Shown: positions 1-21,387 of the stretch, piece after piece
Layout: the number at the start of each line of letters is the position of its first letter
How positions within the stretch are numbered: the stretch's first letter is position 1
DNA from: a phage
NCBI GenBank assembly: GCA_018027755.1
Contig: GCA_018027755.1_4098.1
Strand: one strand, 5' to 3'
Length of the DNA stretch: 64,000 bases
Notes under the pieces: model-generated
Database searches by the model: none
Told to the model about the DNA's origin: nothing
The model's input: the letters and a program-made list of their open reading frames with translations, nothing else
Translations under genes and position numbers: made by a program

Positions 1-254
1 ATTTCAAAGATGGTACTATTCAATCTATCAGTACTGAATATGAATATCAATGGACTGAGTACTTCACTTATGGATCGCGTAATACATTGATGGCTTCACG
101 TAGTAAATTGGAAGAAGTACTGACTCGTATGAATGAACGCGAACGTCAATTTTATGACAAACCAGAAATGTGGAGTTCAACTTACATTGACCGTATTGAC
201 TATGTTATTATGACTCCAATCTTTGACACTGCTTACTATGATTCTTTGAAATAA
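1..254 (+). CDS. hypothetical protein, 3' portion (5' end outside window)
   Basis: Frame open from window edge to TAA at 252-254; co-oriented with downstream genes. Confidence 0.4.
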   Translation, partial: FKDGTIQSISTEYEYQWTEYFTYGSRNTLMASRSKLEEVLTRMNERERQFYDKPEMWSSTYIDRIDYVIMTPIFDTAYYDSLK

Positions 255-265
255 GGATAACTTAT

Positions 266-442
266 ATGAAACTACGTACTCGTAATCGACTGATGGATGC
301 ACTGTACCATGAACAGCTTTCACTGAATGAAGTGAAGCGACAGTTAATGTACACATATCTGTTACCCGCTCGCATTGCAAAACAACGTGCTAAAGAATTG
401 CTGAAAGAAGCAATCGAGTACTGGGAATCTGATTCGTACTAA
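266..442 (+). CDS. hypothetical small protein (58 aa)
   Basis: ATG 266 after AAGGA; below 60-aa track cutoff, read directly from sequence. Confidence 0.4.
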   Translation: MKLRTRNRLMDALYHEQLSLNEVKRQLMYTYLLPARIAKQRAKELLKEAIEYWESDSY

Positions 443-470
443 TTGTCACGTTAATTAAGTGAGGCGATAA

Positions 471-722
471 ATGAAAATTTTATTAGTTCTAATACTACTA
501 ATTGTTTTACCATTTACGTTAGTATCCCCTGAACTTGCATGGAATGTGTTTGTGTACTTACTATGTACTATTGTAGTAAATGGTATCTTGTTCTTAGTTC
601 TATTCATAAATGGAATAGGACACGGTGGAGGATGGACCAGTACTGCTGATATTGTACATAAAACCACTATGTCTTTATTTGTAGTGTGGAATTTATTCTG
701 GACTTGGTTTGTGTTCTTCTAA
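471..722 (+). CDS. small hydrophobic membrane protein (83 aa)
   Basis: ORF track; translation almost entirely L/I/V/F-rich. Confidence 0.5.
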   Translation: MKILLVLILLIVLPFTLVSPELAWNVFVYLLCTIVVNGILFLVLFINGIGHGGGWTSTADIVHKTTMSLFVVWNLFWTWFVFF

Positions 723-733
723 TTAAAAAAAAT

Positions 734-1105
734 ATGAATATAGATTTGAAAGGTGCAACACGAACTGTCATACTCATTGGGGAATATGCTATCAAGATTC
801 CAACCTTTAAAAGTTGGAAGCTATTCTTAACAGGGATGATAGCTAACCTCAATGAACGTTCGTGGATGCAGTACTCCAAGCGTAGTAATAGTGGTATCTG
901 CCCTACGTTGTGGTCATCATGTACTGGACTAGTAACTGTACAGAAACGTTGTAAGCCAGTACAACATAGGGGTTTATTTTGGGTGGAGTTGTGTGCTTTA
1001 GCATTGGATTCAGAGTTAAGTACTGACTTCTTCTATTCAGATGCGAAGCCAGAAAACTTTGGGTATCTGTGTGGTAAGTTGGTTAAACTTGATTATGGAG
1101 ATTAA
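734..1105 (+). CDS. small protein-kinase-like protein
   Basis: Motifs IGEYAIKIP, DAKPENFG, KLVKLDYG resemble kinase Lys/catalytic-loop/DFG-like segments; start placed at internal ATG of track ORF 686..1105. Confidence 0.4.
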   Translation: MNIDLKGATRTVILIGEYAIKIPTFKSWKLFLTGMIANLNERSWMQYSKRSNSGICPTLWSSCTGLVTVQKRCKPVQHRGLFWVELCALALDSELSTDFFYSDAKPENFGYLCGKLVKLDYGD

Positions 1106-1106
1106 T

Positions 1107-1376
1107 ATGTACGCACTGTATAATAAAGAAAAGAAACGATTTGCTAAGGTTGAAATTTCGATTGATACATTTGACATGTTGGAGTACTGTATTGTAACGG
1201 ACTTATATGCTAACTTGTATTACGTTCTTGATGACGTATCAGTACTGCAACGATTGCTTGAGAATTCCAAAAGTCAATGCCAGGACATCCATGATGGTTC
1301 ATCTTATGAAACACCTGAGTGTCCCCACGGGCAACTCGATGGGTATGAGATTGTTAAGTTGGGAATTGTTGAGTAA
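1107..1376 (+). CDS. hypothetical protein
   Basis: ATG 1107 overlaps upstream stop (TAATATG); track ORF 1041..1376 trimmed. Confidence 0.5.
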   Translation: MYALYNKEKKRFAKVEISIDTFDMLEYCIVTDLYANLYYVLDDVSVLQRLLENSKSQCQDIHDGSSYETPECPHGQLDGYEIVKLGIVE

Positions 1377-1382
1377 AAGGTA

Positions 1383-1411
1383 TTGACACCGTACTCATTT
1401 AACTGTATTAT
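1383..1411 (+). promoter_or_regulatory. sigma70-like promoter (TTGACA-N17-TATTAT, TG-extended)
   Basis: -35 at 1383-1388, -10 at 1406-1411, 30 bp upstream of ATG 1442. Confidence 0.5.
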
Positions 1412-1441
1412 GTATGTACACCAACTAATGAGGAATCGGAA

Positions 1442-1801
1442 ATGGCATCTTTATCTGAAATCACTGAACTGAATCCACTGGTAATTAGTACTGTTCAACG
1501 CACCAAGACGTTTTACTTCCGTCCTGCTGATGGATGGAAACGTGGAATGAATGGTGACTATCGAGTACTGGAAGATTCGCTCATCGAGCGTATCAACTCT
1601 GAACTACAGAAGTATGAAGGTGTTAAAGTTGTCCGTTCAACTTCTCGTTATTTTGAGTACTACATTGAGTCTTCAACTGTAAATGAAAACTCATCATTCT
1701 CGGTGGATAACACTGATATTCTTCGCAATGCAGTTGGTTTGCTATGCAACATTGCAGAAGAAATGGGATTAACTATCACCACAATGAGTGAGTTAGAATA
1801 G
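1442..1801 (+). CDS. hypothetical protein (119 aa)
   Basis: ORF track; GAGGAA RBS; promoter upstream. Confidence 0.6.
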   Translation: MASLSEITELNPLVISTVQRTKTFYFRPADGWKRGMNGDYRVLEDSLIERINSELQKYEGVKVVRSTSRYFEYYIESSTVNENSSFSVDNTDILRNAVGLLCNIAEEMGLTITTMSELE

Positions 1802-1805
1802 AATA

Positions 1806-1850
1806 AAAAAAGGGTTGACTTAGGTCGGCCCTTTTGCTATTATATCTATA
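1806..1850 (+). promoter_or_regulatory. composite element: A-run + hairpin overlapping TTGACT-N17-TATTAT promoter
   Basis: AGGGTTGAC..GTCGGCCCT stem between A-run and T-run; -35 1815-1820, -10 1838-1843; same element recurs at 35585, 39262, 42529, 45286. Confidence 0.5.
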
Positions 1851-1871
1851 TCGAAACGAAGGAGACAAACC

Positions 1872-2645
1872 ATGACCCGTCAAGAGAAAGCAATCCAAAT
1901 CGAAAAAAACTTCAATAGCATGATGGCTGCACTGGAATGCCTTCTTGATACACAAGCTAACTCTATCAACTCTCTGATCGTATCAGGTAAAGGTGGTGTT
2001 GGTAAAACTTATAACGTTGACCAACGGTTGCAGAAAGCTGATGATAACTTTGAAATCGACTACAAGAAAATCAGTGGTAAAGTAACTACTTTGGGTCTGT
2101 ACGAAGCACTGTATCGTTCACGTCATGCCGCATCAGTACTGTTACTTGATGACGTTGATATCTTCTCTGACGAGACTAATATTGATTTGCTTAAAGCTGT
2201 GTTGGATACGTCAGAGAAGCGTGTAGTTTCTTACGCGACTTCTGCTAAGTACCTGGAACAGCAGGGTATCCCTAAGCAGTTTGAATTCCGTGGTAAAGTA
2301 ATCTTTCTGACTAACAAAAACCTGTCACAGATTGCTAAAGGTAAAAGCAGCTTAGCACCACACATCGATGCACTGATCACTCGTAGTATCTTTGTTGACC
2401 TGCAACTGTTCACCAACGAAGAAGTGATGATTCACATTGAGAACATCATGAACAAAACTAACATCCTTGAAAACAATGGTGTTAACAAAAATGGTTGTAA
2501 AGCAATCCTGAATTGGATGCTGAACAACGAAGAACGTTTGCGTAGTCCATCACTGCGTATGCCAGTACTGATCGCTGGTTTGTATAATAAATTCCCATAC
2601 GATTGGGAATCAATGGCAGAGAATATGTTCCTTGAGAAAATTTAA
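1872..2645 (+). CDS. P-loop NTPase (deviant Walker A, ParA/MinD-like signature)
   Basis: SGKGGVGKTY Walker A and hydrophobic-LLLDDVD Walker B in translation; GGAGA RBS. Confidence 0.6.
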   Translation: MTRQEKAIQIEKNFNSMMAALECLLDTQANSINSLIVSGKGGVGKTYNVDQRLQKADDNFEIDYKKISGKVTTLGLYEALYRSRHAASVLLLDDVDIFSDETNIDLLKAVLDTSEKRVVSYATSAKYLEQQGIPKQFEFRGKVIFLTNKNLSQIAKGKSSLAPHIDALITRSIFVDLQLFTNEEVMIHIENIMNKTNILENNGVNKNGCKAILNWMLNNEERLRSPSLRMPVLIAGLYNKFPYDWESMAENMFLEKI

Positions 2646-2654
2646 TTACATGTA

Positions 2655-2683
2655 TTGACAGTACTACACTATGGTAGTACTAT
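2655..2683 (+). promoter_or_regulatory. sigma70-like promoter (TTGACA-N17-TACTAT)
   Basis: -35 2655-2660, -10 2678-2683; GGAG RBS then ATG 2713. Confidence 0.45.
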
Positions 2684-2712
2684 AACTTAATATTCACCAC
2701 CGGAGATACGAT

Positions 2713-3051
2713 ATGCTTGAGTTTTTTAATTCAGATACAATGATTAGTATTACTTTGATTTATCTGTTTGGTTTTTTCTTTTATCATGCACTGGTTGTAG
2801 TACTGTGGTATTTTAAAAAGAAAATTGTTTTTAAACTGTATCCAGTAAGGAATTCATCACTAGTTCTTTACACACTAGTTCAAGGTTTGTTTGCAATTGT
2901 TGGTCTTATGGCACACTTAATTTATTGTGCCAATCCTCACTTGAACTCAATCTCACAATATATTGTATTCTTTGGGTTGTTCATTTGGTTAGTTGTATAC
3001 TTAATCCATCTCATTATTCATGGTAGAGATAAAATTCGCGGAGACTTCTAA
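2713..3051 (+). CDS. small polytopic membrane protein, tandem family M
   Basis: ORF track; multiple hydrophobic segments; first of 7 abutting membrane ORFs. Confidence 0.6.
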   Translation: MLEFFNSDTMISITLIYLFGFFFYHALVVVLWYFKKKIVFKLYPVRNSSLVLYTLVQGLFAIVGLMAHLIYCANPHLNSISQYIVFFGLFIWLVVYLIHLIIHGRDKIRGDF

Positions 3052-3398
3052 TGTTTGAAGCTTATCTTGAGTTTTTAAGGAGTAGTTCAGTTGCACATTC
3101 ACTTGCAGGGATTATTCTAACAACTTATGTATCATTTTGGGTAGTTATGTTTCTAGGATGGTATTTTAAACGACAATTCTATAAACGTAATGGTGAAGAT
3201 TTTATGAATTCTGCCATTAATCAATCGTTGTTTGCATCAACATTGATTGCATGTATTGTAGCAACACTCACAGGAAAGGTACTACCAGCTTTTTCCGCAG
3301 TTTACGGCACACTTGGGATGATATGTTTAACTTTTATATTGACCATTAAAATTTGTTGTGTTATGATTGAACTTCGAAATAAGATACCGGAGGAATGA
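3051..3398 (+). CDS. small polytopic membrane protein, tandem family M
   Basis: ORF track; start overlaps upstream stop; hydrophobic segments. Confidence 0.6.
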   Translation: MFEAYLEFLRSSSVAHSLAGIILTTYVSFWVVMFLGWYFKRQFYKRNGEDFMNSAINQSLFASTLIACIVATLTGKVLPAFSAVYGTLGMICLTFILTIKICCVMIELRNKIPEE

Positions 3399-3733
3399 TG
3401 GAGTACTTTATTGATTTACTGCCGTGGTATATGAAAGTTAGTACTTTGTACTATATTATTAGTGCTGGATTCTACTTTCTGATGTGGTTCTTTAAACGAC
3501 CAATTTCAGTATTCATCGCTGATAACATGCTGCAATTAAAATTACACGCATGGTTTGGTATGGCGATGATTATGCCTATTATTCACTACTCAATGATTAG
3601 TAGAGGTTTCCGTTCTAATGGTGAACCAATTGTATTAGTATTCTATTGGGGTTCAACTATTGCATATGTAAGTTTGTTGTTGTTCCCAGTCGTTCATAAG
3701 TTACGTGCTAAAGTTCCTGATGCGAGGTACTAA
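3395..3733 (+). CDS. small polytopic membrane protein, tandem family M
   Basis: ORF track; ATGA overlap with upstream gene; hydrophobic segments. Confidence 0.6.
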   Translation: MMEYFIDLLPWYMKVSTLYYIISAGFYFLMWFFKRPISVFIADNMLQLKLHAWFGMAMIMPIIHYSMISRGFRSNGEPIVLVFYWGSTIAYVSLLLFPVVHKLRAKVPDARY

Positions 3734-4047
3734 TGGATATAGTAACATTGATTTACACGTTGTATTCATTCTATTTCATTATGTGTTGGGTTGGATTTTT
3801 ATTTGTACTCAAGATGTTTGATTATGTTGAAAAACAGATAAAAGAATTTTGTATTCCTTTTATCGGTTCAACCATTATTAGTGTTTCTTGTGTGTATTTT
3901 TTGGTTTTTGATCCACCAGATAACACTGCAATGATTGACTTGATGTTACTACCAACAACTGTTACTTTTTTATGTAGTCTGATGCCGCCGATTAGCCGTG
4001 GACTAACAGAATTTAGACGCAATCAAAAGCGTAAACGAGGGATGTAA
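3733..4047 (+). CDS. small polytopic membrane protein, tandem family M
   Basis: ORF track; C-terminus KRKRG shared with next gene. Confidence 0.6.
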   Translation: MDIVTLIYTLYSFYFIMCWVGFLFVLKMFDYVEKQIKEFCIPFIGSTIISVSCVYFLVFDPPDNTAMIDLMLLPTTVTFLCSLMPPISRGLTEFRRNQKRKRGM

Positions 4048-4415
4048 TGGAAATTGCTCTTATTATCTTAACTGCTATGCTGTTTATTAGTACTGTGGTT
4101 ATAATTGGTAAATTCTTTTGTGTATCATTTTTAGAAACGGTATACGATGAAATTGCTGATGATTATGAATTACAAGCCGGATTTTTCATTACGTATTGGC
4201 TTAGTTTATTTTGTCTAGTCATTGCTTGGATTTTACATATCTTTAAATGGGGTATGGTAGACGGTGATCCTATTATGGCAATTATTGTTCTAGTGTTTGG
4301 TATCCTTGGTGGTGCAGTGCATAATCTAATGGTTATCTGGCAAACTGTTCAATATGTTTTGGTTCCCTATTTCGAAAAGATGCACAGTACAATTAAAAAA
4401 CGTAAACGAGGTTAG
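4047..4415 (+). CDS. small polytopic membrane protein, tandem family M
   Basis: ORF track; C-terminus KKRKRG; hydrophobic segments. Confidence 0.6.
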   Translation: MEIALIILTAMLFISTVVIIGKFFCVSFLETVYDEIADDYELQAGFFITYWLSLFCLVIAWILHIFKWGMVDGDPIMAIIVLVFGILGGAVHNLMVIWQTVQYVLVPYFEKMHSTIKKRKRG

Positions 4416-4416
4416 T

Positions 4417-4779
4417 ATGAACGGGATAGAATTATCTTTCGTTGGTCAATTACTAGTAATGGCGTATACATTTATCTTCTCACTGAATGCATTCGTGTGC
4501 ATTGGGAAGTACTTCCATAAGCGACCATTATCAAATATATATGATGTAATCCAAAAGAGATATAGTCCAGCATATACTGTGTTGGGTACAGTATTCAATT
4601 TTGGTTTTATTGTATTAATAATTGGACTGTTCACATCCTCTTTGAATACAATAACCTTCGGTCTTATGATATGTTCATTGGTATTAGCCGTAATTATATG
4701 TTGTTTAGTACTGCACCTTGTGGTACTATTGTATATAAAGATCTCTGAAATCCACCAACGTTTGGGTATGAGGAAATAA
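4417..4779 (+). CDS. small polytopic membrane protein, tandem family M
   Basis: Track ORF 4354..4779 trimmed to ATG 4417 after CGAGG RBS. Confidence 0.55.
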   Translation: MNGIELSFVGQLLVMAYTFIFSLNAFVCIGKYFHKRPLSNIYDVIQKRYSPAYTVLGTVFNFGFIVLIIGLFTSSLNTITFGLMICSLVLAVIICCLVLHLVVLLYIKISEIHQRLGMRK

Positions 4780-4780
4780 T

Positions 4781-5152
4781 ATGAGTTACCGTGAGATATT
4801 TTCCATTATTTCAATTATTATGTTCAGTACTGGAACACTGGTATGGTTATTATACTTCTTCTGTATTAATCCAGTGTATAATATGTTATGTAATATTAAA
4901 TCAAGTGCCGGATATATCACTTTTATGGTCTTTATGGGATATTATTGTCTAAGCATTTTAGGTGTTGTTTTGGTTGTTATATTTGATGTGGGACCAAATA
5001 GTGATGGTATGGAAATACATGAATTAATAACCATGTTTGGATGTATGATACCAACAGCACTACTGTTTGTAGCTACTTGTAGTGGATTGATAAAATTATA
5101 TAATTATTTAAAATCCATTCATAATTCCATTCATAATAAGCGTATGTCATAA
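4781..5152 (+). CDS. small polytopic membrane protein, tandem family M
   Basis: ORF track; GAGGAA RBS; hydrophobic segments. Confidence 0.6.
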   Translation: MSYREIFSIISIIMFSTGTLVWLLYFFCINPVYNMLCNIKSSAGYITFMVFMGYYCLSILGVVLVVIFDVGPNSDGMEIHELITMFGCMIPTALLFVATCSGLIKLYNYLKSIHNSIHNKRMS

Positions 5153-5158
5153 TAAAAA

Positions 5159-5182
5159 ATCCAGTACTATTAAGTACTGGAT
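5159..5182 (+). other. perfect stem-loop ATCCAGTAC-N6-GTACTGGAT
   Basis: 9-bp inverted repeat built from two AGTACT hexamers between genes; no T-run. Confidence 0.35.
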
Positions 5183-5194
5183 GTATAAGGAGTT

Positions 5195-5857
5195 ATGATG
5201 AAATCAAAATTAGGTTTGTTTTATAAAAACTATTTTGTTAAACAACGTAAATTTATAAAAAAATATTTCTCTGGCGAGAAGTCTAGTCCTATAATCTTTA
5301 AAAGACCAAGTTATAATACTTACTTAGCTGGTGCTAAACAGTCTAAGAAATTTATTACTCTTTTACATAAAAACAAAATTAAAGCTTCTTATGTTGAAAC
5401 GAGAAGAAACTCATCAATAACTCCTGGTGATTTTATTGAGTACGGATGTTTCAATATTAAGTACAATGATAATACATACTTTATGGATATTGATTGTAAT
5501 ACATCCAATCTTTTTAACATTGTAGTAAATCCATTAAAACAATATAATGTTTATGGTGATTCTATTATCAAATTAATCAAAAACAAAGATAGCTTTGATT
5601 TTGAAATAAATGTTTTAGATGATAATTTTGACGAAGTACCAGTAAACCCTGAAATCTGTGATATTTTAAACAGTTTAAAAGGTAGTACCTACAATATATC
5701 ATCTGATTTAATGTTTCAGTACTCATTAATCCATAAAGATATTGAAAAGTATATTGAATGCTCCAGAATTTTGAATTTTCTCTATGATGAATTTAAAAAG
5801 AGTTCTAAAATAACTGCATACACTTTGTACAATATTCCTAAAATGGTGAATCTTTAA
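5195..5857 (+). CDS. hypothetical protein (220 aa), basic N-terminus
   Basis: ORF track; AAGGAG RBS. Confidence 0.6.
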   Translation: MMKSKLGLFYKNYFVKQRKFIKKYFSGEKSSPIIFKRPSYNTYLAGAKQSKKFITLLHKNKIKASYVETRRNSSITPGDFIEYGCFNIKYNDNTYFMDIDCNTSNLFNIVVNPLKQYNVYGDSIIKLIKNKDSFDFEINVLDDNFDEVPVNPEICDILNSLKGSTYNISSDLMFQYSLIHKDIEKYIECSRILNFLYDEFKKSSKITAYTLYNIPKMVNL

Positions 5858-6261
5858 CAAATACAGTACTGGCAACTCCACCGTCTGTAATATATTGTCC
5901 AGTACTGTAAATTTGTATACCATCGGTTAAGTAAGTTCTGTATAAAGTTGCTGTAACATATACGTTATTCATATTCATCTCTATTGGTAGTACACATTTG
6001 GTATAGGCCGACACATCTGTTTGTGTACCTATACCCAATTGACCTGCGTTATCGCCTGTGTTATTACCAGTTGCGTAAACACCCAATGAAGTTATAATAT
6101 GATTAGAAAAATATGAATAACCCAAACTCTTGAGATTCTCTACTGTACAACGTACCATCTGACATAAGGGCAAAAACTGTCGTATCAGATGAAGCTATTT
6201 TTGTAACAGAAGGTTGTATGTTCTTTTTTGATGATGTGATAATTCTTCGAAAGGGTAGCAT
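5838..6261 (-). pseudogene. decayed MLPF-leader RCC1-like paralog (frameshifted, truncated)
   Basis: ATG 6261 after GGAGG gives MLPFRRIITSS..DGTLYSRE then stop after about 53 codons; GQLGIG-containing continuation is in another frame (track ORF 5838..6173). Confidence 0.55.
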
Positions 6262-6353
6262 TGTATCCTCCAAATGTAAATCGTTATTATATTTAGGACA
6301 AAAAAATGCCAGTACAAGGCACTGGCATAAAATCTAAGCAGAAGGCATATCCT

Positions 6354-6464
6354 TCATCTTAATAAATGAAAATTGTGTACCAGTATTTGTGGTTCCAATT
6401 TCTTTATTTCAGGAAGAGTTGGTTTAATATTTCCGTACTTTAACATTCTTCCAAAAGGTAACAT
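6354..6464 (-). pseudogene. MLPF-leader stub (36 codons)
   Basis: Canonical cassette upstream; MLPFGRMLKYGNIKP.. terminates after 36 codons. Confidence 0.5.
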
Positions 6465-6539
6465 AAATCCCTCCTTTATTCATTATACTATATTTAATAC
6501 AAAAAAAAAGAAAAGCCAGTATCAAGTACTGGCCCTATA
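6465..6539 (-). promoter_or_regulatory. array cassette boundary (terminator hairpin + TATAAT + AAGGAGG)
   Basis: Minus-strand reading: GCCAGTA..TACTGGC hairpin, T-run, TATAGTATAATGAATAAAGGAGG, ATG. Confidence 0.55.
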
Positions 6540-7889
6540 TTATTGTAAAGGTATTTCAGTCAAGGTACTATATGTTGTGCCATTATACACACCACGCCAG
6601 TATAATTTACCTTCAGTACTAACCACTAATAATCCATATGTTGTAAACCCAAGAGTACCACCAACATACATAGCATCTTTGATTTTAATACCAATGTCTT
6701 CATATGTAAATGAAGCGACTGCTCCCGCTTGCCATGAAGGACTAGCATAGTAATCACTATAAACACCATGTGCTTTATATATTGATGTTGTTCCGGGTTC
6801 AAAAATTACAGTTCCACAGTAGTTCATTCGTATTTTGGTACTGGATGAAGTTGGTACATTTATACCTACATCATCTTTAATCCCTGTAGTTAGGACGTTA
6901 AAACCACCCGCTACACGGTTGACGTCATTCGCACCGATTAGAAACATACCAACGTTGTAGCCCATATAATACACACTACTTGTACCATTCCAGAAAGAAA
7001 AACCACCACCATTACCACAGCGATATAGTTGTGAATTTGAGCAGTACATCATGCCTTCGTTTGTTGCATCAAAATCATCTGCTGTTCCGATTACAGCCAC
7101 TGTAGTCCACGTTTTAATCACTTGGTTTGTACTAGCTGGTTTTTGTATACCATATCGTATATTATATCCCTTACCTACGATTGTACCATCTTCTAATTTG
7201 GCATAAAGTACAGGTCTATTACCAACAAAATACACATTATTATGTGACATGTCTATTGTGCATCTTAATGAAACTGCTTTTTGTGTCAATTGATTATCTT
7301 TAGTAAAAGAAGTAAAGTAGTAATCTGATGTGGAGTTGTTTATTAAACCTTGAATCGACAAACCCATATACCAGATTTCACCATTAGTGTTCAATGCTGC
7401 CAAAATACAACTATATTTTGAAGTGTATGCTGGGGTTAATGATGTTGCTGGACCTTTATCATATCCACCACAGAATACCATTTCCACAACTTCACCTACG
7501 TTAGAAAAATAAGAAGATACATTTATAAAACCATTTGTTATAAAAGGTGCTGTAGTTATACTTGAATGTGTGAATATTCCATTTGCATATACACCACAAA
7601 AATGATATGAACCATCATTATCTTTAACTATTATTCCATTTGATAGTAGCCAAAAATTGTTTACATTTTTTCGTACTAATTCAATTCCTGTACCATTGGT
7701 TGGTGTTATACCAAAAGAAACATATTTTGTTTGACCAATACCATATAAATTTCCATTTGATGCTAATATTGCACCAAACCAATTACCACCACCATTCCTA
7801 TCATGACCCATACCAATGGAGTCGAATTTCTTCACAGTAGAGGCTTCAACTTTATTTCCGTACTTAACCATTCTCGCAAAAGGTAACAT
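6540..7889 (-). CDS. MLPF-leader RCC1-like beta-propeller repeat protein (449 aa)
   Basis: ORF track; leader MLPFARMVKYGN; G/T/S/N/Y-rich with RCC1-like G-x-N-x-x-G-Q/E/K-L/F-G-x-G repeats. Confidence 0.75.
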   Translation of the reverse strand: MLPFARMVKYGNKVEASTVKKFDSIGMGHDRNGGGNWFGAILASNGNLYGIGQTKYVSFGITPTNGTGIELVRKNVNNFWLLSNGIIVKDNDGSYHFCGVYANGIFTHSSITTAPFITNGFINVSSYFSNVGEVVEMVFCGGYDKGPATSLTPAYTSKYSCILAALNTNGEIWYMGLSIQGLINNSTSDYYFTSFTKDNQLTQKAVSLRCTIDMSHNNVYFVGNRPVLYAKLEDGTIVGKGYNIRYGIQKPASTNQVIKTWTTVAVIGTADDFDATNEGMMYCSNSQLYRCGNGGGFSFWNGTSSVYYMGYNVGMFLIGANDVNRVAGGFNVLTTGIKDDVGINVPTSSSTKIRMNYCGTVIFEPGTTSIYKAHGVYSDYYASPSWQAGAVASFTYEDIGIKIKDAMYVGGTLGFTTYGLLVVSTEGKLYWRGVYNGTTYSTLTEIPLQ

Positions 7890-7959
7890 AATTCCCTCCT
7901 TTATTCATTATACTATATTTAACCAAAAAGAAAAGCCAGTACAGAGTACTGGCATTGTA
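7890..7959 (-). promoter_or_regulatory. array cassette boundary (terminator hairpin + TATAAT + AAGGAGG)
   Basis: Same conserved cassette as at 6465. Confidence 0.55.
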
Positions 7960-9093
7960 TTAAGGTTTATTTTTATAATTAATTTCTACATAGTTACGTT
8001 GTGTTCCAGTATATCCTGGAACATTCCCTATATTTCCATTACCTGCACCAAACAGACGTTCTCCGACTGCAAAATATGTCCCATAGAAACAACCATCAAA
8101 CACAGGAACATCATTATAATTTGATATGTAATTATCCATTGAATCCATTCTAGTGTATGCAGTCAGAGTTACATTTGTACCTATACCATATGCACCATAA
8201 GGGTTAGTACCAGCAACATAATACCCAGTGGGTGTACATATTACTGGTGAATTTGCCCCTGATCTCGTGTGGATAAATCTAAATGTACCTTCAGGTACTG
8301 GTGCTTCTTTACTGAATAATGTTGTAGCTACTACTGGGTAATCAATACCATAACTATTACCACTCAACCACGTTTTACCATCACTATCTTTGAATAATGA
8401 ACAGGATTGTGTGCATCCGAACAGATTCAAATTGGTTACATTTGGAAATTTACTAATTTGTGTATATACCAGAACTGTGGTTGCGGCAGCACTACCAAGT
8501 TGTCCACGACCATTATCACCCGCACTGTACATGTACCCATCGGTCTTTAATATTATACTAGCGTTTCCTAAAATATCAAAATCAACAACATCCGTTTGTG
8601 TTAATGTAGCTATAGGATAACGAAAATTCACTGCCTCACCAGTACCAAATTGACAATTGGTGTTTACCCCACATCCATATAAGTTGCCGTTTTGCATTAA
8701 TATAAACAAACCTGTTGTCATTTTAATTTTCTTAATATTAAGAATATCTATATCTTGGAATATGTGTGTTACATTTACAAATGTGGTTGAGTTAACAGTA
8801 CTTGAACCATAATAAGAACCGTTCCCGCTACCAAAGAATTCATCGCCTTTTCTGTACATTGCACATAGACTGCCACCCCATACATCATCAACTCCAGTGT
8901 CAATTTGAATAACTGAAGTAACACTAGTTGTTGCACCAGTGCCAAGTTCACCACCTGAATTGAATCCAAAACCATACAAATCTCCACTTTCGGTGAGCAC
9001 CAAAACACTGTTATTGGTTGTGCATGAAATCTTTTTGATATTATTAGATGGTCTTTTATTTCCGTACTTAACCATTCTTGCAAAAGGTAACAT
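7960..9093 (-). CDS. MLPF-leader RCC1-like beta-propeller repeat protein (377 aa)
   Basis: ORF track; leader MLPFARMVKYGN; SGDLYGFGFNSGGELGTG-type repeats. Confidence 0.75.
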   Translation of the reverse strand: MLPFARMVKYGNKRPSNNIKKISCTTNNSVLVLTESGDLYGFGFNSGGELGTGATTSVTSVIQIDTGVDDVWGGSLCAMYRKGDEFFGSGNGSYYGSSTVNSTTFVNVTHIFQDIDILNIKKIKMTTGLFILMQNGNLYGCGVNTNCQFGTGEAVNFRYPIATLTQTDVVDFDILGNASIILKTDGYMYSAGDNGRGQLGSAAATTVLVYTQISKFPNVTNLNLFGCTQSCSLFKDSDGKTWLSGNSYGIDYPVVATTLFSKEAPVPEGTFRFIHTRSGANSPVICTPTGYYVAGTNPYGAYGIGTNVTLTAYTRMDSMDNYISNYNDVPVFDGCFYGTYFAVGERLFGAGNGNIGNVPGYTGTQRNYVEINYKNKP

Positions 9094-9166
9094 GATTTCT
9101 CTCCTTTATCCATTATACTATATTTAATACAAATAAGAAAGCCAGTACAGAGTACTGGCTTTTACA
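9094..9166 (-). promoter_or_regulatory. array cassette boundary
   Basis: Conserved hairpin/T-run/TATAAT/AAGGAG cassette. Confidence 0.55.
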
Positions 9167-10357
9167 TTACAATTGTCTAGGTGTATCCAGAACATATCTA
9201 TTTGTTTTAGGACCACCATCATCATAAGTTCCGGTTGAATATATATTTTTCATATCAGCAGTTAGGAAAGTACGTAACGACCCTCGATATATTTTTATTT
9301 TATCATACATAGAATATGTTATTTCTGACGGCAATGGACATGCAGTAAATTTACCAATGGTAACATTAGAACCAACACCCAATGAACCAGCATAACTACT
9401 CGCATTTAAACCTGTTGCATATACACCAGTACTCGTAACTAGTATACTAGATTGTGCTGGGTATCCAGTATGGATTGAATAATAAGTACCGGGTGGTAAT
9501 GTAGCACTATTATTTCCTAAAACTCCATTAACAGTGCTAGATGTAGTTTTATTTCCCCATGCCCCATTATTAGCGTTACCACCTACTAGGAACTGACGTG
9601 CTCCTGTACTTGGATTCTCTACTAAAGCACTGACAGCACCAAATGAACAAACAGTATATTGTAATGTTTTTGTATATGTGGTACTTGGCTTATACAAAGT
9701 ATATTCATTAAATGGTGTCCATGTGGTACTAGTACTTATGCCAGATGTACTACCACCAATATATAAATTATTTTGTGTATCAAAAAACATTGCACAGTAA
9801 TTTGTTGACTGTATTTGTGCAATATCTACATCTGGTGTTACCGCTTTAACAAATGAACCATCTGATATTTGATAAGTAGTTCCTGTACCATCTGCGAATT
9901 GTCTAGCACTATTCCACCCTGTACTCCATATTGTATTATTATCCATTAAGAAAGTAAACCATGTAGTACCTGCATACATCTGTTTAATTGAAGTACTTGA
10001 ACTTTGTTTGTACAATTTTTCAATATATTGGTTATAACTTAAAAATGATGTAGTACTAGTTTCTAAACCAATATGACTACCATATCCACAATAAAAATAA
10101 TTTAAGTCCTTATCTTGAACTAACAAAGTTCCTTGTGTCATCCAGCAATCTTTGACATTTTCTCTAATTAATGTCCACGACCTTACTGCATTATTATTTC
10201 CTCTACCAAACTTCCCAAAACTATTACTGCCTCGTGCGTATAGTTGACCGTCGGTATAAAGTACAACAACCTCAGTATCAGTTGGTATTATTTTCTTAAT
10301 TTGTAGTGGTACAGGCACAATATTCCCATAATTCATCATTCTTGCAAAAGGTAACAT
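9167..10357 (-). CDS. MLPF-leader RCC1-like beta-propeller repeat protein (396 aa)
   Basis: ORF track; leader MLPFARMMNYGN; body near-identical to 13612..14802. Confidence 0.75.
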   Translation of the reverse strand: MLPFARMMNYGNIVPVPLQIKKIIPTDTEVVVLYTDGQLYARGSNSFGKFGRGNNNAVRSWTLIRENVKDCWMTQGTLLVQDKDLNYFYCGYGSHIGLETSTTSFLSYNQYIEKLYKQSSSTSIKQMYAGTTWFTFLMDNNTIWSTGWNSARQFADGTGTTYQISDGSFVKAVTPDVDIAQIQSTNYCAMFFDTQNNLYIGGSTSGISTSTTWTPFNEYTLYKPSTTYTKTLQYTVCSFGAVSALVENPSTGARQFLVGGNANNGAWGNKTTSSTVNGVLGNNSATLPPGTYYSIHTGYPAQSSILVTSTGVYATGLNASSYAGSLGVGSNVTIGKFTACPLPSEITYSMYDKIKIYRGSLRTFLTADMKNIYSTGTYDDGGPKTNRYVLDTPRQL

Positions 10358-10436
10358 AATTCCCCTCCTTATTCATTATACTATATTTAATACAAATAAG
10401 AAAGCCAGTATCAAGTACTGGCATAGTTTTATAGTA
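10358..10436 (-). promoter_or_regulatory. array cassette boundary
   Basis: Conserved cassette. Confidence 0.55.
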
Positions 10437-11546
10437 TCATTTCGGCATTGTAATTGCAGACCATGAGTTCGTGGTAATAGGACCTGGCACATACAAAAAA
10501 GAACCACAAGCATAAATTTGATTATTACCATCAAATACTATACTAAAATGTGCACATGTGTATAATGCTGATTTTTCTGGGTTGTAATTATCTAAAGTTA
10601 GTGTATTGGTGAATCTACTCAAACCACCACCAGAACCATTTCTACCAAATTCACCAGTACTATATATCTTTCCTTCGGTTGTTGCGTACATATTAACATA
10701 TGAAGTTGCACTTGATTTTGATATTTTATGTATCTTACTATCAATAGTAGTGGAGTTAAATGCAAATGGATATACTTGTGTGTTCGTTGTAATACCGTTA
10801 CCAAGTTGACCAACATACTGCCAACCTGCGTTGTATATATTGCTGGCTGAATAAGCAAGAGTACCAGTACTGTTACCACCAAATAGTTTAACACTTGTTA
10901 ACCTTCTTACTAGTGTAGTATACTGTCCGGGACTTACGCCAAGTGAACCATACCCACTGCTCCCGCAACCGAGAAGTTCATTATTTGATGTTAATATTAA
11001 TGTGTTATTCTGTGTACCCAATATATCAAGGACTGTATTAGCTCCGGTATTAACAACTGAAACAAAAGTACTCTGAGCCGTGGAATACCCACCACCGAGT
11101 GAATAGTTACCATTCATGCCTCTACCATAAACAATCGAACCACTAGCATCAACGTAGTGCATTGTATCTGCACCAATTGATATCATTTTAATATTAGATA
11201 TATGTGGAAATGAAGAAGTAACATTCAAACCACCCAACGGAATCATAGTATTTCCTGTGCCTAATTGTGTGGTAACTCCATGCATTATGAATTCTTCACC
11301 CTTGAGATAAAGAATATTGTACGCACCAGCCCATGCATCAGTAACACCTTCTGAAATTAATATCCAAGTATTTCTTGTTGCTGTATTTTCAACGTTTAAC
11401 TGCAAATACGTATTAACCCCACAACCATAAAGTGAGCCATCGCCATAGAGGACGTACAAATTATCAAGACCGCACAGTACTTTCTTTATCTTTGGAGCTT
11501 CAGGTGCAATATTTCCGTACTTAACCATTCTTGCAAAAGGTAACAT
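10437..11546 (-). CDS. MLPF-leader RCC1-like beta-propeller repeat protein (369 aa)
   Basis: Track ORF trimmed to MLPF ATG; AGGAGTG RBS only 8 nt after upstream gene stop. Confidence 0.7.
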   Translation of the reverse strand: MLPFARMVKYGNIAPEAPKIKKVLCGLDNLYVLYGDGSLYGCGVNTYLQLNVENTATRNTWILISEGVTDAWAGAYNILYLKGEEFIMHGVTTQLGTGNTMIPLGGLNVTSSFPHISNIKMISIGADTMHYVDASGSIVYGRGMNGNYSLGGGYSTAQSTFVSVVNTGANTVLDILGTQNNTLILTSNNELLGCGSSGYGSLGVSPGQYTTLVRRLTSVKLFGGNSTGTLAYSASNIYNAGWQYVGQLGNGITTNTQVYPFAFNSTTIDSKIHKISKSSATSYVNMYATTEGKIYSTGEFGRNGSGGGLSRFTNTLTLDNYNPEKSALYTCAHFSIVFDGNNQIYACGSFLYVPGPITTNSWSAITMPK

Positions 11547-11554
11547 ATTCACTC

Positions 11555-12730
11555 CTATTCTGGTAAAATCATTTTCTTCATTTTAACTTGTTGTGTACCT
11601 GGACTCTGTTCCTGAAACATAGACCCGTTACCACACCAGTACACCTCATTAGTACCCACTAACGCGTATAACACACCAGAACCACCTTGTACTGAAAATG
11701 CATTAACATCTGGTGCAACATCCATATCCTCATATTGTACCTGGTGGTAATAAGATCTTTCTGATGCAGTAGTAACAGGCCAACCAAGAGGAACACCACT
11801 ACCACATGTATAAAGTTTACCATTCTGTGTCATTGCCATTATAAAATAATTCAAACTGTGATTGTTCATCGACCCAGCATCTGGTATAATACCACTAATT
11901 GCAGGAGTGGTACTAAATGGACTCATGATAATAGTAGTGTCGCCATACCCTATTCCTAAACAATAATCAGTGTTTTTTCCAGCAGTATATACATTAATCT
12001 TATTTCTATTGGATGTAAGTACTGAAGTGGTTTCAGGAGTACATGAAATACCAATAACTGTTCCAGATATATCAGTACTTACCGTAAATGTCGAAAGTTT
12101 AGAAGAACCTGACCCTAAGTTGTAACTTGCGTTATTCCCACATCTGTAGTATTGATTATTTTTAACATAATGGAAAGCATCCCCAGCCGTTGTTCCCGCA
12201 ATTATAGTAACTCCAGTAGCAATCTGAATTGGCGTTGTTTTTCTACCAGTAACACCCAATGCACCTCCTGTATTACGCCCAATCCCATATAAGTCCCCAT
12301 TACTTAACAAAATCAATAACGCACCATTTGATGCAGTAGTTTCAGTAGCAGCTATATCTACTACTGTAGTAAGTGCTGGTATTGTAGACAATAAAGATGT
12401 GATATTAGTCCATCCAGGAACTGGTGATGCAGATACACCGACATAACCCATTTGACCAGCTAAGTAAAATTCTCCGTCAGTCGTAAGTATAATTGTTGCT
12501 GCAAAGAAGCACCAAACATTAGAAACTTTATATGGACACTGTACCCACCCATTTTGCACATACGCAGTGCTATTATTTCCTAGCATATAGTGTGCACCAT
12601 TTCCACGTAGATATAAGTTACCACTATCAAATAACATACCCATATGTGATGGAGATGTACTTATCTTCATAACACCTGAAGGTGCTGGAACTCTGTTTCC
12701 GTACTTAACCATTCTTGCAAAAGGTAACAT
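11555..12730 (-). CDS. MLPF-leader RCC1-like beta-propeller repeat protein (391 aa)
   Basis: Track ORF trimmed to MLPF ATG after AAGGAGG; leader MLPFARMVKYGN. Confidence 0.7.
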   Translation of the reverse strand: MLPFARMVKYGNRVPAPSGVMKISTSPSHMGMLFDSGNLYLRGNGAHYMLGNNSTAYVQNGWVQCPYKVSNVWCFFAATIILTTDGEFYLAGQMGYVGVSASPVPGWTNITSLLSTIPALTTVVDIAATETTASNGALLILLSNGDLYGIGRNTGGALGVTGRKTTPIQIATGVTIIAGTTAGDAFHYVKNNQYYRCGNNASYNLGSGSSKLSTFTVSTDISGTVIGISCTPETTSVLTSNRNKINVYTAGKNTDYCLGIGYGDTTIIMSPFSTTPAISGIIPDAGSMNNHSLNYFIMAMTQNGKLYTCGSGVPLGWPVTTASERSYYHQVQYEDMDVAPDVNAFSVQGGSGVLYALVGTNEVYWCGNGSMFQEQSPGTQQVKMKKMILPE

Positions 12731-12801
12731 ATTTCCTCCTTTATTCATTATACTATATTTAATACAAAAAGAAATGCCAGTATCAAGTACTGGCCTATAT
12801 T
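12731..12801 (-). promoter_or_regulatory. array cassette boundary
   Basis: Conserved cassette. Confidence 0.55.
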
Positions 12802-13539
12802 TTAGACTGAATTGTTAGGATAATATCTCCCACGTCCCCATATTATTCGCACAGCACCACCACCAGCAGCCGTATAAGAAAAATTATCCCATATACTACC
12901 ACCACCACCATACATCTTACCAGCACCACCACTACCAGCACCACCATTATATGAACCATCGTATCTACCGCCAATACCATTAGCACCTTGAACAATGATA
13001 CCAGTACCACCACCCGTACCAATGAACGAGGTATTATAGAATGCACCACCACCACCGCCGCCGCCAGCACCATTTTCACCAGTGATTGCATCTCCGTTAC
13101 CACCTTTACCAGTGTAGCCACCAGCACCACCACCAATGACTGCACCACCACTTACACCAGCGTTGCCCCCATTACCACCACCATCATTAATAGCGTTAGC
13201 AGCTTTCCCACCTAGTCCACCAACCCTATATTCACCAGTGAAGCTAACACATAGTTTTTCAGTTCCACGATATAAACCGTTTTCAACTGCTGTAGTAGTG
13301 TTGGGATGTGTAAGAGAAACACTTAAGTACTCACCACTAGTAACCGGAATATTATTACGCCACGATAAGCCGCCGCCAGCACCACGTTGACCACCCGGCG
13401 AAATAACACATACTGATATTTCGGTAACGCTAGCAGGAACTGTAAATTGTGTTGTTCCTATTGTCGTGATTAATTGTTCACCATGTGGCTTATATTCAAT
13501 TTCATTCCCGTACTTAATCATTCTTCCAAAAGGTAACAT
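12802..13539 (-). CDS. MLPF-leader glycine-rich protein (245 aa)
   Basis: ORF track; leader MLPFGRMIKYGN but body is Gly-rich (runs of GGG/GxG) and unlike the RCC1-like paralogs. Confidence 0.7.
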   Translation of the reverse strand: MLPFGRMIKYGNEIEYKPHGEQLITTIGTTQFTVPASVTEISVCVISPGGQRGAGGGLSWRNNIPVTSGEYLSVSLTHPNTTTAVENGLYRGTEKLCVSFTGEYRVGGLGGKAANAINDGGGNGGNAGVSGGAVIGGGAGGYTGKGGNGDAITGENGAGGGGGGGAFYNTSFIGTGGGTGIIVQGANGIGGRYDGSYNGGAGSGGAGKMYGGGGSIWDNFSYTAAGGGAVRIIWGRGRYYPNNSV

Positions 13540-13611
13540 AATTCCCTCCTTTATTCATTATAATATATTTAATACAAAAAAGAAAAGCCAGTACAAAGTA
13601 CTGGCATTATA
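13540..13611 (-). promoter_or_regulatory. array cassette boundary
   Basis: Conserved cassette. Confidence 0.55.
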
Positions 13612-14802
13612 TTATAACTGTCTTGGAGTATCCAGTACATATCTATTTGTACGAGGACCACCATCATCATCAGTTCCTGTTGAATATATATTTTTCATAT
13701 CAGCAGTTAGGAAAGTACGATACGAACCGCGATATATTTTAATTTTATCATACATAGAATATGTTATTTCTGACGGCAATGGACATGCAGTAAATTTACC
13801 AATGGTAACATTAGAACCAACACCCAATGTGCCAGCATAACTACTCGCATTTAAACCAGTTGCATATACACCTGCACTCGTAACTAGTATACTAGATTGT
13901 GTTGGGTATCCAGTATGAATTGAATACAAAGTACCGGGTGGTAAGGTTGTACTATTATTTCCTAAAACTCCATTAACAGTGCTAGATGTAGTTTTATTTC
14001 CCCATGCTCCATTATTAGCTAATCCACCAACTAGAAACTGACGTGCTCCTGTATTTGGATTCTCCACCAAAGCACTGACTGAACCCATTGAGCATCCAGT
14101 GTATTGTAACGTTTTTGTGTATGTGGTACTTGGCTGATATAAAGTATATTCATTATATAAAGTCCATGTAGTGCTGGAACTTATACCGGATGTACCACCA
14201 CCAATATATAAATTATTTTGTGTATCAAAAAACATTGCACAGCTATTTGTTGACATTATTTGTGCAATATCAACATCTGGTGTTACAGCTTTAACAAATG
14301 AACCATCGGTTATTTGTTGAGTTTTTCCAGTACCATCAGCGAATTGTTTAGCCCCACTCCACCCAGTACTCCATATTGTATTATTATCCATTAAGAAAGT
14401 AAACCATGTAGTACCTGCATACATCTGTTTAATTGAAGTACTTGAACTTTGTTTGTACAATTTTTCAATATATTGGTTATAACTTAAAAATGATGTAGTA
14501 CTAGTTTCTAAACCAATATAACCACCATAGCCACAATAAAAATAATTTAAGTCCTTATCTTGTACTAACAAAGTTCCTTCTGACATCCAACAATCGTTAA
14601 CGTTTTCTCTAATTAATGTCCATGTTCTTAATGCAGTGTTGTTTCCTCTCCCAAACTTCCCAAAACTATTATTGCCTCGTGCGTATAGTTGACCATCAGT
14701 ATAAAGTACAACAACATCACTATTGATTGGTATTATTTTCTTAATTTGAAGAGGCTCAGGTGTAATATTTCCATAATCAAACATTCTAACAAAAGGTAAC
14801 AT
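13612..14802 (-). CDS. MLPF-leader RCC1-like beta-propeller repeat protein (396 aa)
   Basis: Track ORF 13612..14859 trimmed to MLPF ATG; leader MLPFVRMFDYGN; body near-identical to 9167..10357. Confidence 0.75.
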   Translation of the reverse strand: MLPFVRMFDYGNITPEPLQIKKIIPINSDVVVLYTDGQLYARGNNSFGKFGRGNNTALRTWTLIRENVNDCWMSEGTLLVQDKDLNYFYCGYGGYIGLETSTTSFLSYNQYIEKLYKQSSSTSIKQMYAGTTWFTFLMDNNTIWSTGWSGAKQFADGTGKTQQITDGSFVKAVTPDVDIAQIMSTNSCAMFFDTQNNLYIGGGTSGISSSTTWTLYNEYTLYQPSTTYTKTLQYTGCSMGSVSALVENPNTGARQFLVGGLANNGAWGNKTTSSTVNGVLGNNSTTLPPGTLYSIHTGYPTQSSILVTSAGVYATGLNASSYAGTLGVGSNVTIGKFTACPLPSEITYSMYDKIKIYRGSYRTFLTADMKNIYSTGTDDDGGPRTNRYVLDTPRQL

Positions 14803-14873
14803 ATTTCCTCCTTTATTCATTATACTATATTTAATACAAAAAAGAAAAGCCAGTATCAAGTACTGGCCTATAT
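14803..14873 (-). promoter_or_regulatory. array cassette boundary
   Basis: Conserved cassette. Confidence 0.55.
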
Positions 14874-16043
14874 TTAAACTGGCGAATCTAATATAAATTC
14901 TAAACTACTAATGCCACCATATGTGACATCTGTTCCCGTGCTATATACAAAATTACCATCAGTTATATAAGTTCGGTTATAACTACCTGCCATCTGTGAC
15001 TTACTATAATCAAACCCATCAGGTACGATTGCTTTGGTATATACTAATGCATTAGTAGATGTACCAATACCTAACATACCAGCTTGTGTAGATTGATTGT
15101 AGCCGCAACAATATATACCATCTGTTGTAGCAATAACTTGGTTATAATATGAAGTATTGTTAGCAATGCTTACTACATCACCAGGTGGCATTAGTGATGC
15201 TGTTTGTACCTCAAATGCTCTATAATCTTTGAGAGAACCATCTTTCCCATCTGCTTGTGCACCAAATATTCTTGAACCACCATTTGCGATGATAGTTTTA
15301 CCAGTGGGATCAGTGCCTATTGCCATTGCCATTGAAGTACCATTATTCACATAGTACTTTATATTAATTGTATTACTTAAGCTGGTAGGAGCACCATAAT
15401 ATATATTATATAACTTACTTCCTGAACTTGTAACTGCATTGACTCTTCCTGTATAAAATAACCATCCTTGGTTTGTAACATAACCGTGCATTAAATTACT
15501 TGCAAACAATTTAACAGGTAATTGATTTGCTGCGGTAGGAACAGTACTTTTGACGAATCTACCAGAAACATGGTTAATTGTTGTCCCATCACCCAACTGA
15601 CCATCCGACCCTACTCCAGTACTCCATATTGTTTGGTCTGATAGTAACACACTTGTAGTCTGATAACTAACGGCTATATCTAATATTGGTAATGTTAATG
15701 TATTGAATATAGGCATAGCAGATGTCCATATTGATACTCCTGACCCTTTCATACCAACAGTTGTTGAACTTCCACTGTACCATATTTCATTATTGCTTTT
15801 CTTAACAACTATCGACGTGGCTCCCATCCAAAAATCTTCAACACCAGAAGTACTAAAAGTCCATGTAGTAACAGTATTTTTGTGACCTAAACCCAAAATA
15901 CCATATGCATTATCACCACGCACATATAAATCACCACTGTTTGTTAAAACAGCAACATTATAGTTGTTAGCAAGTATTTTTTTAATATTTGGTTTAGCAG
16001 GTGCAATATTCCCGTAATCAAACAATCTCACAAAAGGTAACAT
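14874..16043 (-). CDS. MLPF-leader RCC1-like beta-propeller repeat protein (389 aa)
   Basis: Track ORF trimmed to MLPF ATG; leader MLPFVRLFDYGN; SGDLYVRGDNAYGILGLG repeats. Confidence 0.7.
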   Translation of the reverse strand: MLPFVRLFDYGNIAPAKPNIKKILANNYNVAVLTNSGDLYVRGDNAYGILGLGHKNTVTTWTFSTSGVEDFWMGATSIVVKKSNNEIWYSGSSTTVGMKGSGVSIWTSAMPIFNTLTLPILDIAVSYQTTSVLLSDQTIWSTGVGSDGQLGDGTTINHVSGRFVKSTVPTAANQLPVKLFASNLMHGYVTNQGWLFYTGRVNAVTSSGSKLYNIYYGAPTSLSNTINIKYYVNNGTSMAMAIGTDPTGKTIIANGGSRIFGAQADGKDGSLKDYRAFEVQTASLMPPGDVVSIANNTSYYNQVIATTDGIYCCGYNQSTQAGMLGIGTSTNALVYTKAIVPDGFDYSKSQMAGSYNRTYITDGNFVYSTGTDVTYGGISSLEFILDSPV

Positions 16044-16114
16044 AATTCCTCCTTTATTCATTATACTATATTTACCCCAAAAAGAAATGCCAGTACTTGA
16101 GTACTGGCATTATG
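16044..16114 (-). promoter_or_regulatory. array cassette boundary
   Basis: Conserved cassette. Confidence 0.55.
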
Positions 16115-17224: not shown

Positions 17225-17232
17225 AATTCCTC

Positions 17233-21386: not shown

Positions 21387-21387
21387 T

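Follow-up and report, generated by a model that had tools for sequence, protein, structure and literature searches.

Why should a jumbo coliphage carry seven small membrane protein genes in an unbroken row, and what may these proteins be doing for it? The question is raised by a 64,000-nucleotide (nt) stretch of phage DNA (GenBank assembly GCA_018027755.1, contig GCA_018027755.1_4098.1), referred to here as the window. Positions 2713-5152 of its plus strand hold seven abutting open reading frames (ORFs), M1 to M7, for proteins of 104-123 amino acids (aa), and the ORF listing confirmed the original prediction of seven consecutive small ORFs at this place. The window is 99.1% identical to Escherichia phage vB_EcoM_E9.1 and 97-98.5% identical to slurp01, phAPEC6, PBECO4 and 121Q, which are Asteriusvirus jumbo myoviruses of about 350 kb, RaK2-like and with T4-like core genes; by sequence identity it belongs to a jumbo coliphage of this genus (121Q/PBECO4-like). 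In our study, M1-M7 were found by profile comparison to be paralogous members of one family. This descriptive part (family, topology and conserved gene slots) is near certain. The functional part is a reasoned guess: the proteins would be made early, would act separately in the inner membrane, and would serve as effectors in taking over the envelope or in excluding superinfecting phages.

The original prediction had proposed pairwise alignment as the check on common origin. Plain BLAST matches among the members were weak, except the one between M1 and M0, an extra copy in 121Q and CRJP21 (48% identity), and it was the profiles that revealed the relatedness. Comparison of orthogroup profiles with hhalign gave 93.5% for M2-M3, 81.5% for M5-M7 (full length), 80.8% for M5-M6, 68.7% for M1-M2 and 58.5% for M2-M4 (near full length), and all 56 reversed-profile controls scored <=1.0%. 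Further, hidden Markov models (HMMs) leaving out one orthogroup at a time were run against the 591 six-frame ORFs of the window, 584 of them outside the family. The omitted paralogue always ranked seventh, right after the six included members, with E values of 2e-11 to 3e-3 against 0.02-0.17 for the best non-family ORF; M3 was the weakest. Common origin, the point at which the original prediction had laid itself open to refutation, was thus positive by both methods. The profiles also show two sub-clusters, M1-M4 and M5-M7, with a weaker link between them, and on this evidence the M genes arose by ancient tandem duplication.

Two positions hold the family together. A Phe at the cytoplasmic end of the first transmembrane (TM) helix is invariant in all 25 aligned sequences (…WYFKR…, …GKFFCV…), usually within [WK][FY]F[KCH], and the same 25 sequences carry Arg or His in the C-terminal tail, as in [LF][RH]xK[IL]P (…LRNKIPE…, …FHNKQK…). 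Both motifs recur in members from the metagenomic contig L015 and from Erwinia phage Hallingskeid, which were outside the model-building set. The positions that are invariant across the whole family are all at the cytoplasmic face of the membrane, as may be expected if the paralogues are subunits of one hetero-oligomeric inner-membrane assembly (a channel, scaffold or remodelling ring), the main alternative, which we hold to be possible, on the unlikely side. The comparison to be named for it is the transmembrane ring of Vtc1/Vtc3/Vtc4, a hetero-oligomeric channel of paralogous subunits with three TM helices.

The family appears to be confined to a narrow group of phages. When 5.8 billion proteins were searched with a word-indexed profile, 32 matches came back; an exhaustive HMMER run over 1.84 billion cluster representatives yielded just 17 relatives. 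Apart from a few shortened or over-extended ORF calls (56, 77 and 189 aa), the matches are about 100-125 aa long, and those with known context lie in phage genomes of 340-370 kb or in matching metagenomic contigs. Neither the complete E. coli genomes nor the plasmids searched gave a family match, and outside the array the window yielded no additional member to the family HMM. An 83-aa hydrophobic ORF at 471-722 was rejected as a member by BLAST and the family HMM, and the relative in phage phi92 (gp231, gp233), to which annotation notes of ph0011 point, was not confirmed by tblastn at E <= 1. As judged from these searches, the M family occurs in RaK2-like jumbo phages only. When the seven proteins were scanned against Pfam, NCBIfam and PADLOC, sub-threshold noise was all that appeared; in PADLOC no defence-system profile was reached, the sole match being a sub-threshold PycTM for M1 (E 0.026). 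The sequence-profile search of the PDB gave no significant match, and Foldseek against the PDB and BFVD gave none with E < 3, the fold searches being non-specific. PHROGs splits the window proteins over six unlinked and unannotated families with faint cross-hits (M1 phrog_19454, M2 phrog_19046, M3 phrog_27396, M4 phrog_33258, M5 phrog_26405 and M7 phrog_27618; M6 has only a weak match). The M genes are already in GenBank as hypothetical or membrane proteins, and our literature searches found no paper on the array or recognising the family. The family is new; it falls within a familiar class, the small membrane proteins encoded by phages, and as a tandem expansion it is unusually large and ordered.

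The members are real genes and not chance ORFs. M1 (2713-3051, 112 aa), M2 (3051-3398, 115 aa), M3 (3395-3733, 112 aa), M4 (3733-4047, 104 aa), M5 (4047-4415, 122 aa), M6 (4417-4779, 120 aa) and M7 (4781-5152, 123 aa) are under purifying selection, with a ratio of nonsynonymous to synonymous substitution rates (dN/dS) of 0.09-0.50 for every member against three Asteriusvirus relatives; M6 alone gave 0.30-0.37, and the conserved allele of the upstream nucleoside triphosphatase (NTPase) gene 0.03-0.06. Every M gene has orthologues in other phage genera, those of M6 being present in phage A4 and L015. The coding strand of the array is T-rich (AT skew -0.114), as expected of membrane proteins. The true start of M6 is the ATG at 4417 after a GAGG Shine-Dalgarno sequence, since the first in-frame ATG at 4354 is without a ribosome-binding site, and the short form is annotated in 121Q and vB_Ec-M-J. 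M6 is left unannotated in the GenBank records of phAPEC6, CRJP21 and UE-S1, and CRJP21 and UE-S1 annotate in its place a spurious minus-strand ORF (4446-4634). This ORF and the one at 3822-4022 were dismissed as minus-strand shadows of M genes, and the 'regulator of chromosome condensation' labels on M0-M3 of CRJP21 as spill-over from neighbouring RCC1-like genes.

The boundaries are overlapping or near-adjacent, as had been predicted, with stop-to-start junctions of -1, -4, -1, -1, +1 and +1 nt. Each start from M2 to M7 has GGAG or GAGG 6-9 nt ahead, embedded in the final codons of the preceding gene, and the array is one translationally coupled unit. The KRKRG ending noticed in two members was also found as described (QKRKRGM in M4, KKRKRG in M5); it is partly a constraint of coupling, because the Arg-Gly codons CGA GGN form the GAGG Shine-Dalgarno sequence of the next gene. 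Such tight coupling with embedded ribosome-binding sites would suit the stoichiometric synthesis of subunits for one complex, but phage operons in general often have overlapping starts and stops.

As for topology, the original prediction of polytopic membrane proteins held, and its count of three to four spans did not: hydropathy and charge give three helices for each protein. Three hydrophobic helices stand out in the Kyte-Doolittle profile of every member. Lys and Arg number 0-1 in the N-termini, up to 4 in loop 1 and 1-7 in the C-terminal tails; the N-terminus (0-17 aa) and loop 2 (2-9 residues) are acidic or neutral. On this charge distribution, all seven are predicted to be inner-membrane proteins with three TM helices, the N-terminus outside and the C-terminus inside (N-out/C-in). 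M5 is exceptional in having an acidic loop 1 without Lys or Arg, and its orientation rests on the C-terminal tail (+6). The TMHMM check suggested with the original prediction is provided by notes in the record of Klebsiella phage Muenster, which read '3 TMDs; N-out, C-in' for five of the eight orthologues there; the M4 orthologue is given 2 TMD, and those of M7 and M9 are given as N-in/C-out. AlphaFold2 modelled M5 from the family alignment with a predicted local distance difference test score (pLDDT) of 80.7, and M3 from the orthologue alignment with a pLDDT of 82.6 and a predicted template modelling score (pTM) of 0.68. The two models are alike: between TM1 and TM2, loop 1 forms a short helix, and the long TM3 is prolonged by a cytoplasmic C-terminal helix. 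Within slots, mean pairwise identity is 0.62 in TM1, 0.63 in the C-terminal tail and 0.72 in the short N-terminus, and it is lowest in TM2 (0.48), loop 2 (0.47) and TM3 (0.45). M3, with the motif FYFLMWFFKRP, is the best conserved slot. This segment conservation, together with the exchangeable members described below, suggests a constant anchor carrying a variable intramembrane hairpin.

The predicted properties of M1-M7 (104-123 aa, three TM helices, N-out/C-in, basic cytoplasmic tail) are also those of class I holins such as lambda S105, which are of similar size, with three TM helices, N-out/C-in orientation and a basic cytoplasmic C-terminus. The original prediction had offered holin-like action as one of three candidate functions, beside superinfection exclusion and defence evasion. 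A role as holin, pinholin or antiholin, timing the release of a signal-arrest-release (SAR)-type endolysin, was considered, and we regard it as very improbable. In its favour, the literature found on RaK2-like phages names no specific holin gene; a holin is mentioned for fEgEco12 alone, the gene being unnamed. The RaK2-like endolysin is moreover of the SAR type, and with its N-terminal TM domain (PMC5259590) lysis would be sensitive to membrane energisation. The endolysin gene (121Q gp532), however, lies far from the array genes 224-232 (PMC5259590), seven to eleven copies would be unprecedented for holins, and no holin family was matched by M1-M7 in Pfam (E <= 1) or PHROGs (E <= 0.1). The annotators of the Center for Phage Technology label the Muenster orthologues just 'putative membrane protein'.

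The expression signals around the array bear on this question as well. A sigma-70-type promoter-like element, TTGACA-17 nt-TACTAT, was found on the plus strand at 2655-2683, within the 67-nt spacer that separates the NTPase gene from M1 in the window's clade. It scores 10 of 12 hexamer matches in the promoter scan, its spacer contains a AGTACTAC/GTAGTACT inverted repeat, and both hexamers are kept in five Asteriusvirus lineages despite a diverged spacer. In the window, the pattern TTGAC[AT]-N16-18-TAnnAT occurs 27 times on the plus strand and 3 times on the minus strand, against about 1.4 per strand expected by our own composition-based estimate. It falls largely in blocks of short plus-strand genes (for example at 1383, 1815, 2655 and 25760-45296), and these blocks are presumably early. 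In the related phage CBB, RpoD-like promoters likewise cluster in a region presumed to serve early host takeover, and structural genes are preceded by an ATAAATA motif (PMC5259590). No such T4-late-like ATAAATA was found near the array. A holin would thus have to be reconciled with a conserved sigma-70-type promoter and no late-type motif; with an early-type promoter, seven paralogues and no neighbouring endolysin, M1-M7 differ from class I holins, and the holin role is disfavoured.

Immediately 3' of M7 lies a perfect 10-bp stem-loop (5159-5182; TCCAGTACT-ATTA-AGTACTGGA) with a folding energy of -14.3 kcal/mol and z = -4.5. It has no U-tract on the plus strand and a U-run on the minus strand, and it likely delimits the array as a transcript-end or processing element. 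No Rfam family was found in positions 1-7000. Virion mass spectrometry of phAPEC6 left the array products gp012c-gp017c undetected, and the adjacent RCC1-like gp003-gp010 were detected (PMC7247149). We infer that array expression is early and non-structural, the timing from the promoter motifs and the absence from virions from the phAPEC6 proteome.

Some further observations were made on the motifs of the window. ATAAATA occurs once on the plus strand and never on the minus strand of the whole window, against about 28 and 19 expected; TATAAATA is never found, and the avoidance of the late core is strong even in the minus-strand RCC1-like virion block. The AGTACT palindrome is present in 280 copies against about 22 expected, and CAGTACTG in 63 against 0.7; no hexamers are more over-represented than CAGTAC, GTACTG and AGTACT. 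Many of the AGTACT-type copies pair into intergenic hairpins (for example 2660-2681, 5159-5182, 5864-5911, 6306-6328 and 6515-6533). The enrichment, 8-15 fold, is common to RaK2, A4, XaC1, Hallingskeid and two metagenomic relatives, and the loci of T6 and PA5oct do not have the motif. A literature search on AGTACT in jumbo phages gave nothing relevant by title or abstract.

Comparison across phages has highlighted both the order and the flexibility of the array. Orthologous arrays are present in 121Q (genes 224-232), phAPEC6 (gp012c-gp017c), RaK2 (ORF309-316), Muenster (gp554-561) and K64-1 ('membrane protein'). They resemble that of the window in order, size, predicted three-TM topology and place downstream of an NrdC.10-like NTPase. 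The orthologues are labelled only as hypothetical or membrane proteins and are scattered over seven unlinked PHROGs (19454, 19046, 27396, 33258, 26405, 27618 and 16874). Among RaK2-like phages the array ranges from 4 to about 11 copies. The window carries M1-M2-M3-M4-M5-M6-M7, and 121Q and CRJP21 have M0 in addition to M1-M7. A4 has a 72-aa hydrophobic ORF, seven members and then a DUF1190 lipoprotein; RaK2 and Muenster have M2a-M2b-M1-M3-M4-M5-M7-M9 and then a lipoprotein; L015 has M2-M7 and then a lipoprotein, and is without M1. The uncultivated virus genome (UViG) L009 has four divergent members, and Hallingskeid about ten to eleven. In every case the array has an NrdC.10-like NTPase gene upstream, and minus-strand RCC1-like virion genes usually come after it. 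Orthologous slots are kept, mostly in the same order, in Asteriusvirus, Alcyoneusvirus, Hallingskeid and two metagenomic lineages. Since these slots are common to genera whose NTPases are 54-70% identical, the duplications predate the split of those genera.

The one-to-one slots M2-M7, kept in order over genus-level divergence, speak for a complex of fixed subunits; the variable copy number, in contrast, and the gain, loss and frameshifting of single members among near-identical phages speak against it. M0 is a tandem M1 paralogue in 121Q, CRJP21, SP27 and JP4, is not in the window, and comes and goes among phages that are over 97% identical. RaK2 has two copies of M2 (ORF309 and ORF310), and in the 121Q record a frameshift breaks M4 into genes 228 and 229. 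The alleles recombine gene by gene, which is also unfavourable to a complex. Against UE-S1 the synonymous divergence (dS) is 0.04 for M2 but 0.44 for M1, and against vB_Ec-M-J it is 0.10 for M3 but 1.6 for M7. Such abrupt changes between adjacent genes indicate gene-by-gene recombination of alleles without evident co-adaptation. M0 gain and loss, the M4 frameshift of 121Q, the M2 duplication of RaK2, the lack of M1 in L015, the four copies of L009 and the gene-by-gene reshuffling therefore argue that the members are independent. In the Salmonella phages SD-1_S14 and SD-2_S15 (records of 310-326 kb), M2 and the NTPase gene look shortened or partly deleted. The apparent loss may be real or a product of poor assembly, as these records contain many fragmented genes, and the M2 deletions were left out as evidence.

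The P-loop NTPase that the original prediction had placed upstream of the array is indeed there, co-oriented at 1872-2645. It is a P-loop/AAA+ homologue of T4 NrdC.10 (phrog_1250), about 41% identical to NrdC.10 of T4 and T6 and 54.5% identical to RaK2 ORF307 by tblastn, and its homologues were matched in 1310 phage records. The search for related loci with the NTPase returned only three viral contigs. The first array gene begins right at the NTPase stop (0 to +1 nt) in A4, L015 and Hallingskeid, which also favours a complex; in RaK2 the stop overlaps instead (-1 nt) with the soluble ORF308, which precedes the array. From this arrangement a more specific machine may be imagined, unique to RaK2-like phages, in which the hetero-oligomer would be ATP-driven and would dock the co-transcribed AAA+ NrdC.10-like NTPase via the cytoplasmic juxtamembrane motifs; we consider it improbable. 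In T6 the NTPase is followed by a soluble protein and in the Xanthomonas jumbo phage XaC1 by an RCC1-like block, with no array in either. The NTPase does not need the array, because these homologues have none behind them, and the fact that NrdC.10 homologues of T-even phages and XaC1 function without it counts against the complex too. The adjacency of array and NTPase is not independent evidence of a functional link, because it is seen in one clade only. The idea that the array is a split form of the gene after nrdC.10 in T-even phages was dropped, as the T6 gene encodes a soluble protein. Within Asteriusvirus the NTPase itself was observed as two alleles, at 97-98% and at about 59% aa identity to that of the window. 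In those phages the adjacent array is about 84% identical in DNA, which makes a sharp recombination mosaic.

Taken together, these observations lead us to favour, tentatively, separately acting effectors of the inner membrane. Under this proposal, host sigma-70 RNA polymerase would transcribe the array early from the 2655-2683 promoter, and in other lineages the array would be co-transcribed with the NrdC.10-like NTPase. The M proteins would enter the host inner membrane within minutes of infection, where each paralogue might work alone or as a homo-oligomer, as a membrane-embedded effector. TM1, the invariant Phe, the basic residues at the cytoplasmic interface and the R/H-x-K tail would form the constant part, and the TM2-loop-TM3 hairpin, which varies, would give each paralogue an inner-membrane partner of its own to recognise. 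The purpose may be to take over or guard the envelope, for example by blocking the entry of superinfecting DNA, as T4 Imm does, or by neutralising membrane-acting host responses. The envelope role is favoured because of the inferred early expression and because a lipoprotein of the outer-membrane type adjoins the array in several lineages. This DUF1190 (YgiB-like) protein is encoded directly 3' of the array in A4 (locus L005, 7803-8354), RaK2 (locus L003, 7744-8340) and L015 (5417-6001).

T4 Imm is the nearest comparison for this proposal. Like it, M1-M7 are small, predicted inner-membrane proteins of a large lytic myovirus with a T4-like core, and early expression is predicted for them; of the Imm-type trait of being small, inner-membrane and early, both the membrane location and the early promoter are predicted from sequence. 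Imm differs in having two TM helices and a single-copy gene, and it has no sequence similarity to M1-M7, as the Pfam and PHROGs scans gave no Imm-family match. Several points weigh against the effector proposal. No homology ties any member to exclusion or another function, the scans against Imm (Pfam), PADLOC and NCBIfam gave no match and the fold searches were non-specific. The early timing is drawn from promoter motifs only. Very little of each protein is exposed to the periplasm (N-terminus 0-17 aa, loop 2 2-9 aa), and therefore any target would be met within the membrane or at its cytoplasmic face. The six slots ordered across genera are also steadier than typical arms-race sets and would fit the subunits of a complex too.

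The same features may be read in another way, in which the proteins would be modulators of host physiology unrelated to conflict, each binding a different inner-membrane protein of the host, that tune transporters, respiration, division or membrane biogenesis for a very large burst. The early promoter, the constant anchor with its variable TM2-TM3 hairpin and the individually exchangeable genes are consistent with this, and purifying selection without gene-wide positive selection (dN/dS < 0.5) is what conserved host targets would be expected to impose. No member has homology to a known regulator, and we consider this reading rather doubtful. It and the envelope-effector reading are inseparable from sequence data alone.

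Other genes of the locus may be mentioned. In the window's clade the place of the lipoprotein is held by a dissimilar, soluble and basic protein of 220 aa (5195-5857, plus strand; phrog_34359, function not assigned), and no homologue of the DUF1190 lipoprotein was found in the window. This downstream gene is at most a candidate member of the array module. A conserved 42-aa soluble ORF (MKPEQWII[DE]DMRAMR...) lies within the arrays of RaK2/Muenster (locus L003, 4766-4894) and Hallingskeid (locus L019, 5850-5978) and is absent from the window. Further on, the minus strand at 6540-25000 holds a long block of paralogous RCC1-like genes, all starting MLPFARMVKYGN or similar; their phAPEC6 homologues are the virion-associated gp003-gp010 mentioned above.

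This study bears on a group of phages of practical interest. RaK2-like jumbo phages (Asteriusvirus and Alcyoneusvirus) are under development as therapy against E. coli and Klebsiella, and more than 80% of their genes are without an assigned function. Seven groups of 'hypothetical proteins' are here merged into one clade-restricted membrane family that has a clear signature and conserved slots, together with an expression model that can be tested. If neither the exclusion (or defence-disarming) role nor the complex with the NTPase is true, the array would be no more than a gene expansion of the ordinary, lineage-specific kind. If the proteins do form a complex with the NrdC.10-type ATPase, this would give the first functional handle on a gene present in over a thousand T4-like genomes. 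If the M proteins serve in exclusion or in the disarming of defences, they would have a bearing on the design of phage cocktails and would form a new class, present in multiple copies, beside the few exclusion factors of the inner membrane that are known.

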